Virus record (IMG/VR): IMGVR_UViG_3300048921_000145
Length of the DNA stretch: 59,663 bases
Reading direction: 5' to 3' (one strand)
Origin: a virus
The translations under genes were made by a program, and so were the position numbers. This document shows positions 25,153-29,904 of the stretch, piece after piece; positions within the stretch are counted from its first letter, which is position 1, and every line of letters begins with the position of its first letter. The notes below the pieces were generated by a model. The model worked only from the letters and a program-made list of their open reading frames with translations, was not told the DNA's origin and made no database searches.

Positions 25153-26904
25153 ATGGCAAAACTGAAGCTGATCGGCTTCGTCGGCGAGAGCCCGAAGATC
25201 ATCCCGCGCCTGCTGGGCGATATGGCCTCGCAGATGGCGTACAACGTGCGACTGGACGACGGCGGGCTGACGCCGATCCGCAAGCAGCGTTTCGAGCACC
25301 AGTTTGGCAGCGTGCCGGCCGGTGGCTACCAGACGATGTACAAGCATGACGGCAACTGGCTGGCCTGGGCGACGGACGTGTACGCCGCGCCGGGGCCGGT
25401 GGCCGATGATCGCCTGTACATCATGGGCGATGGGGTGCCGAAAATGCAGGTGGCGGGCGTGACGTACCCGCTGGCCATGCCGTTGCCGGGCTCGGCGCTG
25501 GCCGTGACCTTGAGCGGTACGCCGACACCGGGCGCCTTGGGGACGACACGGATCTACGTCTACACCTGGGTGACCGCCTTCGGTGAAGAGTCGGAGCCCT
25601 GCCCGGCCAGTGCCGACGTGTTCTGGACGCCGGGGCAGACCGCTACCCTGTCCGGGTTTGCGGCGACGCCGGCCGGGCGCAACATCACCTTGCAGCGCAT
25701 CTATCGGGCGCAGACCGGCAAGACCGGCACCTTGCTGTACCTGATTGCCGAACGGGGCGCGAGCACGGCCAACTTCGTCGACACCGTGAGCCCGGAATCG
25801 CTGCAAGAGGCGTTGCCATCGGCTAACTGGAACGCACCACCGGACGACCTGACCGGTTTGATTGCGCTGCCCAATGGCCTGATGGCGGCCTTCAGCGGTA
25901 AGCAGCTGTGCTTTTGCGAGCCCTATCGCCCACATGCGTGGCCGGAAGCCTACCGCCTGACCATGGATTACCCGATTGTCGGGCTGGGCGCCTTCAGCTC
26001 GTCGATCATCGTCACCACCACCGGCAAGCCGTACATCGTCACCGGCACCGCGCCCGAGAGCATGGTCAGCGAGAAGATCGAGCAGGATTTGCCCTGCATC
26101 AATGCGCGCGGGATCGTCGACCTGGGCTATTCGGTGGTCTATCCGTCCTACGATGGTTTGGTGCAAGTCACCAGCGGCGGCGCCTCGGTCATCAGTACCC
26201 GACTGTTCTCGCGCGATGACTGGCTGCAACTGAACCCGGCCATCATGGTGGCGGACCGGTACAACGGGCGCTACATCACCAGCTTTGACTACTCCGATGC
26301 TAGCGGCGCCGAGTACCGCGGCATGCTGATCATCGACCTGACCGGCGAACAAGCGTTCCTGATTCGCTCCAATGCGTTGCCGTCGGCGCTGTATTTCGAC
26401 CGACCGACCGGCAACCTGTACCTGCTGATCAATGACAGCATCTACCAGTGGGACGACCCGAGCCAGCCGAGTGAGCTGCTGTCGTGGAAGTCCAAGCCGT
26501 TCGTTCTGCCCAAGCCGACCAACTTCGGCGCGATCCTGATCGAAGCTGACGACGGCCTGAGCCCGGATCAGCTGGCGGCGATTCAGGCCGAGATTGATCG
26601 CGTCAAAGCAGCCAATGCGCTGCTGTTTGCCCAGCCGTCGATAGGTGGCGAGTTGGGCGGGTCGGCACTCAACGTCTACCCGGTCGACGGCGACCAGCTG
26701 CAAATGGTGCCGATACTGAGTCGCACGGTGGCGATCAACATCTACGCCGACAAAAAGCTGGTGGCTTCGGTGGGGACGATCAACAAAATGGCGCGTTTGC
26801 CGTCGGGCTTTCTGGCGCAGATGTGGGAGGTGGAAGTGGCCAGCGACCGCGCGATTACGCAAATCACCCTGGCCGGCACCGGCGCCGAACTGGCAGAGGC
26901 CTGA
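25153..26904 (+). CDS. Large virion structural protein (tail/nozzle candidate; 583 aa)
   Basis: Called from size and position. Confidence 0.75.
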   Translation: MAKLKLIGFVGESPKIIPRLLGDMASQMAYNVRLDDGGLTPIRKQRFEHQFGSVPAGGYQTMYKHDGNWLAWATDVYAAPGPVADDRLYIMGDGVPKMQVAGVTYPLAMPLPGSALAVTLSGTPTPGALGTTRIYVYTWVTAFGEESEPCPASADVFWTPGQTATLSGFAATPAGRNITLQRIYRAQTGKTGTLLYLIAERGASTANFVDTVSPESLQEALPSANWNAPPDDLTGLIALPNGLMAAFSGKQLCFCEPYRPHAWPEAYRLTMDYPIVGLGAFSSSIIVTTTGKPYIVTGTAPESMVSEKIEQDLPCINARGIVDLGYSVVYPSYDGLVQVTSGGASVISTRLFSRDDWLQLNPAIMVADRYNGRYITSFDYSDASGAEYRGMLIIDLTGEQAFLIRSNALPSALYFDRPTGNLYLLINDSIYQWDDPSQPSELLSWKSKPFVLPKPTNFGAILIEADDGLSPDQLAAIQAEIDRVKAANALLFAQPSIGGELGGSALNVYPVDGDQLQMVPILSRTVAINIYADKKLVASVGTINKMARLPSGFLAQMWEVEVASDRAITQITLAGTGAELAEA

Positions 26905-27152: not shown

Positions 27153-27581
27153 ATGCCACAGCTGACGTACGACGATCAACCCGAACTGCTGCGCTGGGCC
27201 GCTGAACGTATCGGCGTGCGCTGCTTTAAGCCGGACGCCAAGGCCTTCGGTGTGCTGCGTGGCGGCCAGTTGTGCGCAGTGGTGGTGTGGGACACCTTTT
27301 CCGAGGTGGATTGCGCCCTGCACGTTGCCAGCTTGGGGGATGGTCACTGGCTCAGCCGACGTGTGCTGATTCAGGCCTTCGGTTATCCGTTCATTGACTT
27401 GAAGATGCGCCGCCTTACCGCGCTGATCCCGGCCAAGAACGCCAGCGCGATCCGCTTTAACGAACACCTGGGCTTCAAGCTCGAAGGCGTCTGCCCGGAA
27501 GCGATGCCAGACGATGACATTCAGATTCGCGGCATGCTCCGACGAGAGTGCCGTTTTATTCCCCCGGAGTATCGCCAATGA
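27153..27581 (+). CDS. GNAT-family N-acetyltransferase-like protein (142 aa)
   Basis: RRLTALIPAKNASAIRFNEHLGFKLEGV resembles GNAT motif A/B (RimJ/L-like). Confidence 0.55.
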   Translation: MPQLTYDDQPELLRWAAERIGVRCFKPDAKAFGVLRGGQLCAVVVWDTFSEVDCALHVASLGDGHWLSRRVLIQAFGYPFIDLKMRRLTALIPAKNASAIRFNEHLGFKLEGVCPEAMPDDDIQIRGMLRRECRFIPPEYRQ

Positions 27582-28516
27582 TGACGCGAGATTTTTGGAC
27601 CCCGGCCGCGCTGGAGCCGGGCAACCTGCACCAGCGGCCATCGAAATTGGATCGGCACTTGGCGGTGCTCGCGATTGGTCGCAGCGTGTGTTTTGGCAAA
27701 GGTGGCGGCGGTGGTTCTGACGCTGACCCGCAGGTCGGTGAGGCCGCGAAGATGCAGGCCAAGACCGGCGCCGACTGGCTGGACTTCTCGAAGACCGCCT
27801 ACGCGGACAGCCAGGTTCGCCAAGCCGTAACGGACAACCTGAATAACGAGGTCACCAGCCAGCAACTGGCTGACATGCGTCAGGCTAGTACGCGCAGTGA
27901 TGACCAGTGGGACCGCTACAACACGCTGTTCAAGCCCATCGAAGACCGCATGGTGTCCGACGCCAACAGCTACGACACGCCGGAAGCGCAAGCGGCGGCT
28001 GCCGCGACGGCCAAAGCCGACGTCATGGCAAACGCCGGTCAGGTGCAGCAGCAGAACGCGCGGCAGATGGCGAGCATGGGCATTAGCCCTACGAGCGGGC
28101 GCTTCGCCGGGGTGGATCGGGGTAATGACCTGTCGACAGCCTTAGCCGCAGCAGGCGCGCAGAACGGCGCGCGTGAGCAGGTGAAAGCCACCGGCATGGC
28201 CCTGCGTGAAGGCGTGGCCAACTTCGGGCGGGGCAATACCGCGACCGCCGCGCAACAGGTCAGCCTGGGTACGCAGTCGGGTAACTCGGCCGTGAACAAC
28301 TCGCTAGCGGCAGATGCCAGTTCGCGGGCTAACACCAACATCATGGCGCAAGGCTTTCAGGGGGCGCAGCAAGGCTATGGCGGCCAGGCTAGTACCTTGA
28401 GCAACCAACGGCAACAGAACATTGCTGTGCAAAGCGGAAACCAGCAAGCCGACTCGGCCAACAAAGCCGCTATTGGTGGCCTGGCGGCTGCCGGTATGAT
28501 GGCCGTCGCATTCTAA
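27578..28516 (+). CDS. Putative internal virion (ejection) protein (312 aa)
   Basis: ATGA overlap. Gly-run followed by an Ala/Gln/Asn-rich helical sequence, with a C-terminal hydrophobic segment. Confidence 0.65.
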   Translation: MMTRDFWTPAALEPGNLHQRPSKLDRHLAVLAIGRSVCFGKGGGGGSDADPQVGEAAKMQAKTGADWLDFSKTAYADSQVRQAVTDNLNNEVTSQQLADMRQASTRSDDQWDRYNTLFKPIEDRMVSDANSYDTPEAQAAAAATAKADVMANAGQVQQQNARQMASMGISPTSGRFAGVDRGNDLSTALAAAGAQNGAREQVKATGMALREGVANFGRGNTATAAQQVSLGTQSGNSAVNNSLAADASSRANTNIMAQGFQGAQQGYGGQASTLSNQRQQNIAVQSGNQQADSANKAAIGGLAAAGMMAVAF

Positions 28517-28533
28517 TCACTGAGGGTTTCCAC

Positions 28534-29904
28534 TTGATCGAGGCAATCAACCGCGCCACCGACTTATCCATGGCCCAAGGTGTGCGCGTGATGCAGACCG
28601 CGTTTATTGGTGGCAGTCAGGCGGCGCACGTCATGTACTTGTTGAAGCTGATGGCGCCAGCCCATGGCGCGCACATCGTTGACGCCGGCTGTGGCATTGG
28701 CGAAGTGGCAAGGCTGATGGCCGACAAGCGCCCCGATCTGAGCTTTACCTTGGCCAACATCAGCCAGCATCAGCTGGATATGGCGCCGGTGGGTGATCAG
28801 TTCCACCAGCTGCTGGCCGACTTCACCAACAGCCAGCTGCCGGCCGGCTGCGCCGACGTGGTGATGTTCAACAGCGCGCTGTGTCAGATGCCGATCAACC
28901 AAGCCTTGAGCGAGGCCCGGCGCCTGCTCAAGCCCGGCGGCCAGCTGTTCATCTGTGACCTGGCGATTGCCGAGTACCGCGAACTGCCGGAGCTGTACGC
29001 GACGTTTATGCCGGCCGATGTGTGGGGCGAGGTGATTGAACGTCACGGCTTTGCGGCGACGCAAACGATTCTGACCCACGGCGACATGACGCACTTTGCC
29101 GGCGAGTTCGACGACTTCGAGCAGGCCTTGCCCGGCGCCATGGTCTACATCGCCCAATTCCGTAGCCAAACGCTGCATGAGCAGGTGGCGGCGACGCTCG
29201 ACCGGCACCAACGCATTGCCTTTCAATTCAGCGGCGGCAAGGATTCATTGGCCGCGCTGTTTGTCCTCGAACGCTATTGGCCGCAGATGACTGTGTACTG
29301 GACGAATACCGGCGACCCGGTGCCGGAAGTGCTGGCGGTGGTCGAGCGCGTGCGCGCCCTGGTGCCGAACTTTGTCGAGATTGCCGGCCGGGTGAACGAA
29401 CAGATTGCCGCGCATGGCTTGCCGTCCGACCTATTACCCACTACCGCAACCGCTTTCGGTCGCGCAGCCTATGGCGGTGGCGTAGCCTTGCAGGACCGGT
29501 TCAACTGCTGCTACCACGCGCTGATGGCGCCGATGCACCAACGCATGTTGGACGACGGCATTACCTTAATCGTGCGCGGACAGAAGAGCGCCGACGCGAT
29601 GAAGTCGCCGCTGCGTTCCGGCGCCATGGATGACGGCGTGGAGCTGCTGTTCCCCCTGGAACATTGGAGTGACACGCAGGTTTTTCAATACCTCAAGGGT
29701 AGCGCCTTCGTTCCGGGCTACTACGAACACTTGGCCGCCTCGCCGGATTGCCTGACCTGCTCGGCCTACTGGTCAGAAGGTCGTGCCACCTGGCTGAAGC
29801 GCAAACACCCCGAGGCCTACCAGGTCTATCAGGGTAAGCTCGACGTGATCCGTGAGGCCGTCATGCCGCACATCGACCTATTTAACCTGGAGGTGTCCCA
29901 ATGA
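28534..29904 (+). CDS. Fusion protein: class I SAM-dependent methyltransferase (N-terminal) + PP-loop ATP pyrophosphatase / PAPS-reductase-like domain (C-terminal), 456 aa
   Basis: VDAGCGIGEV (SAM motif I) at ~28678. SGGKDS PP-loop at 29228-29248. C-terminal Cys pair CLTC. TTG start with a GAGGG RBS. Confidence 0.75.
   Translation: MIEAINRATDLSMAQGVRVMQTAFIGGSQAAHVMYLLKLMAPAHGAHIVDAGCGIGEVARLMADKRPDLSFTLANISQHQLDMAPVGDQFHQLLADFTNSQLPAGCADVVMFNSALCQMPINQALSEARRLLKPGGQLFICDLAIAEYRELPELYATFMPADVWGEVIERHGFAATQTILTHGDMTHFAGEFDDFEQALPGAMVYIAQFRSQTLHEQVAATLDRHQRIAFQFSGGKDSLAALFVLERYWPQMTVYWTNTGDPVPEVLAVVERVRALVPNFVEIAGRVNEQIAAHGLPSDLLPTTATAFGRAAYGGGVALQDRFNCCYHALMAPMHQRMLDDGITLIVRGQKSADAMKSPLRSGAMDDGVELLFPLEHWSDTQVFQYLKGSAFVPGYYEHLAASPDCLTCSAYWSEGRATWLKRKHPEAYQVYQGKLDVIREAVMPHIDLFNLEVSQ

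Follow-up and report, generated by a model that had tools for sequence, protein, structure and literature searches.

A methyltransferase–PP-loop fusion gene among the ejection-protein genes of a Bcep22-like podophage, and its possible part in virion protein maturation

The window analyzed here is the whole 59,663-nucleotide stretch of IMG/VR virus record IMGVR_UViG_3300048921_000145, and the gene in question encodes a protein in which an S-adenosylmethionine (SAM)-dependent methyltransferase is fused to a PP-loop domain with the fold of 3′-phosphoadenosine-5′-phosphosulfate (PAPS) reductases (Table 1). The window is a ~60 kb contig from a podophage that belongs to the Bcep22/PEp14 supergroup: it encodes a TerL sharing 55–60% identity with the TerLs of Serratia phage Parlo, Pseudomonas phages Skulduggery and Itty13, and Erwinia phage PEp14, and a megablast search of isolated phages with 7 kb around the locus gave no nucleotide-level match. 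The fusion gene lies between the genes for two virion or ejection proteins, here called A and B, and the genes for a GNAT-like acyltransferase, A, the fusion, B, and a DarB-like polyvalent protein are predicted to form one tightly packed late operon. The GNAT stop and the A start overlap by 4 nt (ATGA), as do the fusion stop and the B start (also 4 nt), and the 17-nt gap between the A stop and the fusion start holds a GAGGG ribosome-binding site 9 nt 5′ of a TTG start codon. A preliminary description of this DNA, made without database searches, had reported four open reading frames (ORFs) here, coupled or less than 20 nt apart, with two enzymes interleaved with two low-complexity, internal-protein-like products beside a giant gene. 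All four were recovered at the positions it gave, on the plus strand and with this spacing; the two low-complexity products fall in virion structural families (phrog_8003 and phrog_9667), and gene order and Pfam domains agree in placing the fusion in an operon of ejection-protein genes, beside the gene for a DarB-like polyvalent protein.

Table 1. Genes, domains and motifs at the locus (positions in the window).
Feature	Position	Strand	Basis
Internal virion protein, 583 aa (upstream context gene)	25153..26904	+	phrog_511 E 3.5e-169; syntenic with Bcep22 gp67
GNAT-like acyl-CoA N-acyltransferase, 142 aa	27153..27581	+	phrog_4470 E 2e-45
Ejection/virion protein A, 312 aa	27578..28516	+	phrog_8003 "virion structural protein" E 8.5e-81; syntenic with Bcep22 gp70
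Fusion protein, whole, 456 aa	28534..29904	+	Pfam and PHROG profiles
Fusion, N-terminal class I SAM methyltransferase domain, aa 1-212 (predicted)	28534..29169	+	Methyltransf_11 E 6.8e-13
Motif I VDAGCGIGEV, aa 49-58 (core DAGCGIGE, aa 50-57)	28678..28707	+
Fusion, C-terminal PP-loop ATP-pyrophosphatase domain, PAPS-reductase fold, aa 216-456 (predicted)	29179..29904	+	PAPS_reduct E 2.3e-7
PP-loop SGGKDS, aa 233-238	29230..29247	+
CC pair, C325/C326	29506..29511	+
CxxC pair, C406/C409 (SPDCLTCS)	29749..29760	+
Virion/ejection protein B, 427 aa	29901..31184	+	phrog_9667 "virion structural protein" E 1.9e-72; syntenic with Bcep22 gp74
DarB-like polyvalent protein, 3,546 aa	31265..41905	+	Pfam LPD38 6.3e-41, ResIII, SLT, Helicase_C_4, MTS

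The N-terminal half of the fusion matches Methyltransf_11 (PF08241) at 49.5 bits against a curated cut-off of 21.2, which upholds the class I SAM methyltransferase motif I that had been read by eye. Among 69 homologues with identity down to 35%, residues D50, G52, G54, G56, and D108 are invariant. The half adopts a Rossmann-like seven-stranded fold in the AlphaFold2 model (predicted local distance difference test score, pLDDT, 94), with TleD, AtmM, and RebM (all three at E about 1e-12), MitM, and ArsM as its top Foldseek matches. By sequence and fold together, its nearest solved relatives are small-molecule methyltransferases, including phosphoethanolamine methyltransferase; the nearest named NCBIfam models (DVU_1556 family, BioC, UbiE, and Tam) were all matched below their cut-offs. 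A Pfam scan of the fusion matched no DNA-methyltransferase family, and neither a motif IV of the DPPY type nor a catalytic PC was found, the segment after β4 reading DVVMFNSAL. Both sequence and model place this half with the small-molecule class I SAM methyltransferases rather than with the DNA methyltransferases.

The C-terminal half matches PAPS_reduct at 31.4 bits (cut-off 22.5) and phrog_424 at E 3.9e-34. It has an SGGKDS PP-loop and a four-cysteine CC...CxxC pattern, in which the C-terminal cysteine pair noted in the preliminary description (C406/C409) is joined by C325/C326; S233, G234, G235, D237, S238, and all four cysteines are invariant in the same 69 homologues. The top Foldseek matches of this domain are CysH (2o8v, 6vpu, and 1sur) and adenosine-5′-phosphosulfate (APS) reductase (2goy), followed by TtuA, FAD synthase, GMP synthetase, LarE, and YcfA; the QueC fold was also matched. 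In APS reductases the CC...CxxC cysteines are the ligands of a [4Fe-4S] cluster. The fusion shares with the APS reductases (CysH) of Mycobacterium tuberculosis (7lhr) and Pseudomonas aeruginosa (2goy) both the fold and a CC...SxxCxxC[TS] motif that aligns position by position, the profile alignment to 7lhr pairing leCCaanlmePl with heCCrlrkvvPl and DCmtCtA with gCapCtA. The four-cysteine center of the fusion is accordingly probably [4Fe-4S], a Zn site as in QueC being the alternative. It differs from these enzymes in two respects: sulfonucleotide reductases carry a catalytic C-terminal cysteine (ECG[LI]H), whereas the fusion has no cysteine past C409 and ends ...NLEVSQ; and the APS reductases have lost the SGGKDS motif, whereas the alignment places this canonical ATP-binding motif, intact in the fusion, where CysH has SSSFG. 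The fusion also scores far below the cut-offs of the NCBIfam CysH models. Because SGGKDS is intact and the ECGLH cysteine is absent, the fusion is not expected to be a sulfate-assimilation enzyme, and an auxiliary metabolic role of that kind was rejected on these motif grounds. Its PP-loop half is best described as a putative ATP-pyrophosphatase-type adenylating enzyme with a four-cysteine metal center.

That the two halves form a genuine fusion, as first proposed, is borne out by both of them passing their Pfam cut-offs and by the agreement of AlphaFold2 and Foldseek on both folds. The PP-loop domain alone was modeled with pLDDT 95.6 and the full-length protein with pLDDT 94.3 and a predicted template modeling score of 0.90; the full-length model reads as a confident, rigid two-domain body. 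The protein is acidic (isoelectric point 5.4, net charge -16), and no DNA-binding domain was detected in it.

The fusion is rare in no general sense: by sequence searches, it appears to be missing from isolated phages and common in metagenomes and prophages. A tblastn search of isolated phages gave 43 matches, every one limited to residues 206-455, in phages of Ralstonia (31), Burkholderia (10), and Aeromonas (1), with one unclassified, and the methyltransferase half had no relative among 50,697 isolated phage genomes; BFVD likewise gave no two-domain structural match. Full-length fusions form more than 200 clusters in a large protein database (identity 36–86%), drawn mostly from ~60 kb contigs and prophages of Comamonadaceae, Polaromonas, Variovorax, and Rhizobacter. 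When the PP-loop half was searched exhaustively, it recovered 588 representatives, 171 of them below 1e-30, with mixed architectures.

Across these representatives and 38 loci, six arrangements were found. The domains are fused with the methyltransferase first, as in this window and many others, or with the PP-loop first (P0140, P0155, and L027); they are encoded by adjacent genes, either PP-loop then methyltransferase (L012, L013, L014, L016, and L032) or the reverse (L025 and L036); the PP-loop protein stands alone, as in Bcep22 and others; or the methyltransferase is replaced by an N-terminal CxxCxxCC domain (PF03692, putative Zn/Fe-chelating; P0123, P0128, P0130, P0175, and L019:9671-10753). 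A reading of this PF03692 domain as a FliB-like lysine methylase was dropped, as there was no NCBIfam FliB match. On the PP-domain tree the methyltransferase-fused state requires at least 11 changes, and the solo forms of Bcep22 and Cimandef nest among methyltransferase-fused forms. Such repeated fusion, fission, and re-ordering indicates that the two activities serve one pathway, and is strong sequence-level evidence that methyltransferase and PP-loop are functionally coupled, the methyltransferase probably supplying an optional extra step. The PP-loop gene itself was never found outside the ejection-protein operon in roughly 150 loci examined.

The order GNAT – A – PP-loop (with or without methyltransferase) – B – giant protein is common to Bcep22, Cimandef, prophages, and metagenome contigs, and recurs in the IMG/VR loci that have enough flank and a detectable upstream gene. 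The PP-loop domain appears orthologous to Bcep22 gp73, JC1 gp65, and the Ralstonia "CysH" proteins (phrog_424), at about 50% identity over aa 206-455 (51% between the fusion and Bcep22 gp73), with the same CC...CxxC and SGGKDS motifs in an identical gene order; these Bcep22-type proteins differ in being about 240 aa long and in having no methyltransferase half. By homology and by its position between gp70-like and gp74-like genes, with a DarB-like gene downstream, the fusion gene can be assigned to the Bcep22-type phrog_424 module, and the Bcep22 and Cimandef gene orders, together with the tblastn matches, agree with the earlier remark that PAPS-reductase-like genes are a feature of Bcep22-type phages. 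The giant protein downstream combines SLT, SF2 helicase (ResIII/Helicase_C_4), MTS-type methyltransferase, and LPD38 domains by Pfam, and its homologues are labeled "DarB-like antirestriction" in the Bcep22 and Cimandef records. A ParB-like segment (…DGHHQWLAK…) was also seen in it by eye, with no Pfam match at E below 1e-3.

A different setting was observed in an ~11-kb integrative element on the chromosome of Comamonadaceae bacterium OS-1 (AP026969.1; L003:2223-14105) and in L004. Besides genes for an integrase, BrnT/BrnA, a replication initiator, and a primase/helicase, it has A, a methyltransferase–PP-loop fusion, a 531-aa B-like protein, and a 245-aa ORF, and no GNAT, capsid, tail, or giant-protein genes. 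It may be either satellite-like or a prophage remnant.

Protein A of the window has a leader of about 45 aa followed by the Gly-rich motif GKGGGGGSDADP, and ends in a hydrophobic, Gly/Ala-rich tail (...AAAGMMAVAF). Its homologues (L001-L047; 27578-27760 in the window) keep an N-terminal motif [GK]GGG..(A/S)PxPD(P/Y). Leaders of 20-60 aa, hydrophobic in some cases, occur on A in the window, Bcep22, Parlo, and other homologues, and many homologues begin MGGKGG, MGGGGS, or MCSDAPD immediately past the GNAT stop codon. This N-terminal pattern suggests processing or acylation. Three more specific ideas about A were rejected: lasso-peptide-like cyclization of the N-terminus onto an Asp, as the Asp position varies among homologues; a lipoprotein signal before a conserved Cys, as there is no canonical lipobox and many homologues start MGGG or MCSD; and a read-through or frameshift fusion of A with the enzyme, as the frame relation varies by locus (a 17-nt gap here, ATGA overlaps elsewhere).

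The gene upstream of A had been called GNAT-like. Its membership of phrog_4470 stands, and the wider family match is weak, with Pfam Acetyltransf_4 at 14.2 bits (E 0.045) against a cut-off of 24.3, weak NCBIfam GNAT matches, and PDB GNAT matches only at E 0.2 or higher. All isolated-phage relatives examined have it directly upstream of A, as do 31 of 38 related loci by hidden Markov model (HMM). The GNAT–A pair is more widespread than the PP-loop gene, occurring in 71-74 isolated-phage records (adjacent wherever both coordinates are listed), including PP-lacking phages of Klebsiella, Erwinia, Pseudomonas, Serratia, Rhizobium, Agrobacterium, Sinorhizobium, Ochrobactrum, and Microcystis. In part of the PP-loop clade (L005:1313-1924, L006:8585-9199, L017, L022, L023, and L028-L031) an acetyltransferase of another family, phrog_1249, about 205-229 aa long, takes the position of the 142-aa phrog_4470 protein.

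The ORF that ends at the enzyme start has the hydrophobic Gly/Ala-rich tail of A in 36 of the 38 PP-loop loci tabulated (37 with L019), and the tail is kept even in distant loci where this ORF belongs to phrog_6121. In all PP-lacking relatives examined, A is 100-130 residues longer and carries a C-terminal Peptidase_S74 domain, the intramolecular chaperone and auto-processing domain of endosialidases and tail fibers, which starts straight after the hydrophobic tail (...GMGLMAF|SSKDYKEDK); in PP-containing phages A ends exactly at ...MAF and the enzyme gene comes next. Pfam found no Peptidase_S74 in A of the window. With Parlo A as query against isolated phages (67 records), the match stops at residue 325-335, with the ...MAF tail, in all 41 Burkholderia/Ralstonia records and extends through S74 to residue 405-417 in all 26 others, PP-loop status being read here from the genera that carry the gene (Burkholderia/Ralstonia). 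A second sample, of 77 IMG/VR loci, was found with A itself and is unbiased as to presence of the enzyme; 37 have PP-loop without S74, 40 have S74 without PP-loop, and none have both or neither. Three of these A-seeded loci were missed by our in-house S74 HMM and carry a canonical Peptidase_S74 by Pfam. L024 is a possible exception and is left out of the "both" count: its A end looks S74-like by eye and a PP-loop gene follows, with no S74 match by Pfam. Within the S74-less group, every locus sampled has kept the PP-loop gene, whereas the methyltransferase has repeatedly been acquired, dropped, or relocated, a contrast more in keeping with a core function than with a dispensable moron.

The S74 domains on A of PEp14, Parlo, Skulduggery, Itty13, PBC5, and others begin at the genomic position, just after the ...MAF codons, where the PP-loop gene stands in its carriers, and are a strict alternative to it. 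The two are otherwise dissimilar, S74 being a self-cleaving, cis-acting chaperone of unrelated fold and the PP-loop protein a predicted trans-acting, ATP- and SAM-dependent enzyme; they may nevertheless be functionally equivalent. S74-bearing A proteins (L040:4465-5628, L041:4360-5616, and L042-L047, from PEp14-, Parlo-, and Skulduggery-type phages) are named "tail fiber domain-containing protein" or "chaperone of endosialidase" because of the S74 domain, which is probably misleading where the protein is an internal or ejection protein.

The preliminary description had supposed that the fusion is packaged or expressed with the ejection proteins, and its packaging is disfavored by data from relatives. 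Mass spectrometry of JC1 virions identified 16 proteins, including gp64 (the A homologue), gp67, gp68, and gp69, so that homologues of A, B, the giant protein, and neighboring small proteins are present in the particle; the GNAT gp63 and the PAPS-like gp65 were not detected in this virion proteome (PMC9144972). The Bcep22 GenBank record likewise puts a virion-associated label only on the neighbors of the GNAT and PAPS-like genes.

The reading that we favor, tentatively and at rather less than even probability, is that the fusion is a late, non-packaged maturation enzyme for ejection proteins, most likely A. It builds on the domain identities, the catalytic motifs, the coupling of methyltransferase and PP-loop, the synteny, and the PP-versus-S74 alternation computed here; from these we infer which molecule is modified and at which site, and by what chemistry (sulfur or nitrogen). 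The enzyme is located exactly where relatives have S74, and so may mature A rather than modify DNA. Under the proposed mechanism, the protein would be a two-step modification enzyme made late alongside the ejection proteins and kept outside the virion, and its substrate would be the ejection-protein set, most likely A, encoded directly before it. The PP-loop domain would spend ATP to adenylate a carbonyl or carboxyl oxygen; the four-cysteine metal center, probably [4Fe-4S], would aid the swap of the activated oxygen for sulfur or nitrogen; and the SAM methyltransferase would next methylate the product or the same group. The upstream GNAT would acylate A, most plausibly at its small, Gly-rich N-terminus. 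The enzyme would in this way stand in place of the S74 auto-processing chaperone that is fused to the C-terminus of A in sister lineages. The acidity of the enzyme, its non-DNA type of methyltransferase, the non-detection of both enzymes in JC1 virions, and the retention of A – fusion – B without capsid or giant gene in the L003 element are all in favor.

A more far-reaching version, which we consider doubtful though possible, is that the enzyme, with its optional methyltransferase and the universal GNAT, is a trans-acting maturation system that replaced the cis-acting S74 chaperone in one large podophage lineage, chemically modifying A for membrane insertion during DNA ejection. Such modifications might include, close to the hydrophobic C-terminal tail, thio- or amido-substitution together with methylation, and, at the Gly-rich N-terminus, N-acylation. 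Joint action of PP-loop adenylation and methylation at one macromolecular site has precedents in Dph6/Dph5 (diphthamide on EF2) and Ncs6/Trm9 (mcm5s2U), and Cap9 carries out a QueC-like conjugation to a protein N-terminus. The family profile matches Cap9 (9nto_B) weakly (E 1.1e-6); these systems belong to other PP-loop subfamilies, share no genomic context with the fusion, and serve as analogies only.

Several points weigh against the maturation reading. The substrate is a proposal from gene position and sequence. Late operons are normally packed tightly, so the overlapping stops and starts say little. Some 26 isolated relatives are functional in the absence of the enzyme, and DNA phosphorothioation is the role for which the wider PAPS-reductase-like family is best known. 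In a tree built on the A core, the PP-type proteins fall into what is essentially a single clade, so the alternation with S74 may reflect a single ancestral replacement, and the constant position of the enzyme may then be inherited synteny. In PP-lacking relatives the A|B junction holds variable genes of about 95-350 aa with no Pfam or PHROG match, for example Skulduggery gp26 (L040:5618-6673), PEp14 gp25 (L042:4664-5647), and Parlo gp79 (L041:5616-5924); the slot is an accessory-gene hotspot, as is typical of accessory or anti-defense slots. Lastly, the JC1 negative concerns homologues rather than the phage of this window, and low-copy proteins can escape proteomics.

Unlikely, but the foremost of the alternatives, is a DNA-directed modification or anti-defense role, in which the PP-loop/Fe-S domain would thiolate or otherwise modify progeny DNA before packaging, or block host Dnd, Ssp, or BREX-4 systems, with the methyltransferase acting on the modified moiety. 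PAPS-reductase-like PP-loop proteins insert sulfur in Dnd, Ssp, and BREX type 4 (PMC12707154; PMC12839542), the gene is near one for a DarB-like antirestriction protein, and the variability of the A–B slot also suits this explanation. DndC, SspD, and BrxP share with the fusion a PAPS-reductase fold, a true PP-loop, and Cys-ligated metal or Fe-S sites; the window protein is much smaller, and the weak PADLOC matches to SspD (E 2.8e-4, aa 231-278) and BrxP (E 3.6e-3, aa 223-275) are confined to about 50 residues at the PP-loop, with no full-length match to either and none to DndC. PADLOC, run on the four module genes, found among them no cysteine desulfurase and no DndD/SspC, DndE/SspB, or DUF4007-type partner. 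Further support comes from protein p0018 of Vibrio phage 44E38.1, an N-terminal PAPS-reductase domain joined to a C-terminal Dam with anti-Dnd activity, through which the phage escapes Dnd (Piel et al., preprint 10.1101/2021.05.05.442762). Among such fusions it alone has a tested phenotype and, like ours, it is a podophage-encoded PAPS-reductase-like and SAM methyltransferase fusion, so that the preliminary description, which knew of no characterized example, needs correcting, with the reservation that p0018 has the reverse domain order, a Dam-type DNA N6-adenine methyltransferase instead of Methyltransf_11, and a location in a variable early region. A tblastn search with the window PP-loop domain matched no Vibrio phage, and p0018 is not detectably related to it. 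The DNA hypermodification suggested in the preliminary description is further disfavored by the small-molecule type of methyltransferase lacking DPPY and PC motifs, by the acidity of a protein with no detected DNA-binding domain, and by a position deeply conserved in a structural operon with no gene loss over the clade, unlike fast-turnover anti-defense genes.

Improbable, to a slightly greater degree, is that GNAT and the fusion are low-copy packaged effectors, solo counterparts of polyvalent-protein domains that would be ejected with the DNA and modify host proteins or defense-signaling small molecules early in infection. The two genes do lie in the run of ejection-protein genes that directly precedes a polyvalent protein, a small-molecule-type methyltransferase suits a non-DNA target, and solo GNATs among late structural genes have been argued to be capsid-deployed like polyvalent proteins (Iyer et al., 2017; PMC5512222). 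The JC1 virions that yielded the flanking gp64 and gp67-69 did not yield gp63 or gp65, however, the Bcep22 label is likewise on the neighbors only, and no capsid-targeting feature was identified.

The PP-loop and methyltransferase pair Ncs6 and Trm9 acts jointly on tRNA U34, which would suit a tRNA or cofactor enzyme. Very improbable, in spite of this parallel, of the CysH fold found by Foldseek, of the database names "cysH" and "PAPS reductase", and of the suggestion made in the JC1 and CSP3 genome papers (PMC9144972, PMC10269572), is an auxiliary metabolic moron of this sort or a true PAPS reductase boosting host sulfate assimilation, given the absent ECG[LI]H cysteine, the canonical SGGKDS in place of SSSFG, and the confinement of the gene to the ejection-protein operon in the roughly 150 loci examined.

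Although known and annotated, the Bcep22-type module has gone unstudied. Its version with a fused methyltransferase is new and is absent from cultured phages, and the coupling of methyltransferase with PP-loop and the alternation of PP-loop with S74 are new observations. They provide testable handles, together with a motif pattern that excludes a true reductase; the either/or relation of PP-loop and S74 holds over about 140 genomes and loci. Few unexplained phage enzymes are as frequent as the PAPS-reductase-like ones, which are usually labeled as sulfur-metabolism morons or assumed to be DNA-acting. Should the fusion act on DNA, it would represent a new minimal modification enzyme; on either account the "cysH" label on dozens of therapeutic-candidate Burkholderia and Ralstonia phages would be functionally wrong. 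If it modifies A, phage ejection proteins would gain their first described pathway of ATP- and SAM-dependent covalent modification, with a parallel in the acylated penetration peptides of animal viruses, and maturation of an ejection protein by such an enzyme would open a field of enzymatic post-translational chemistry in phage genome delivery.

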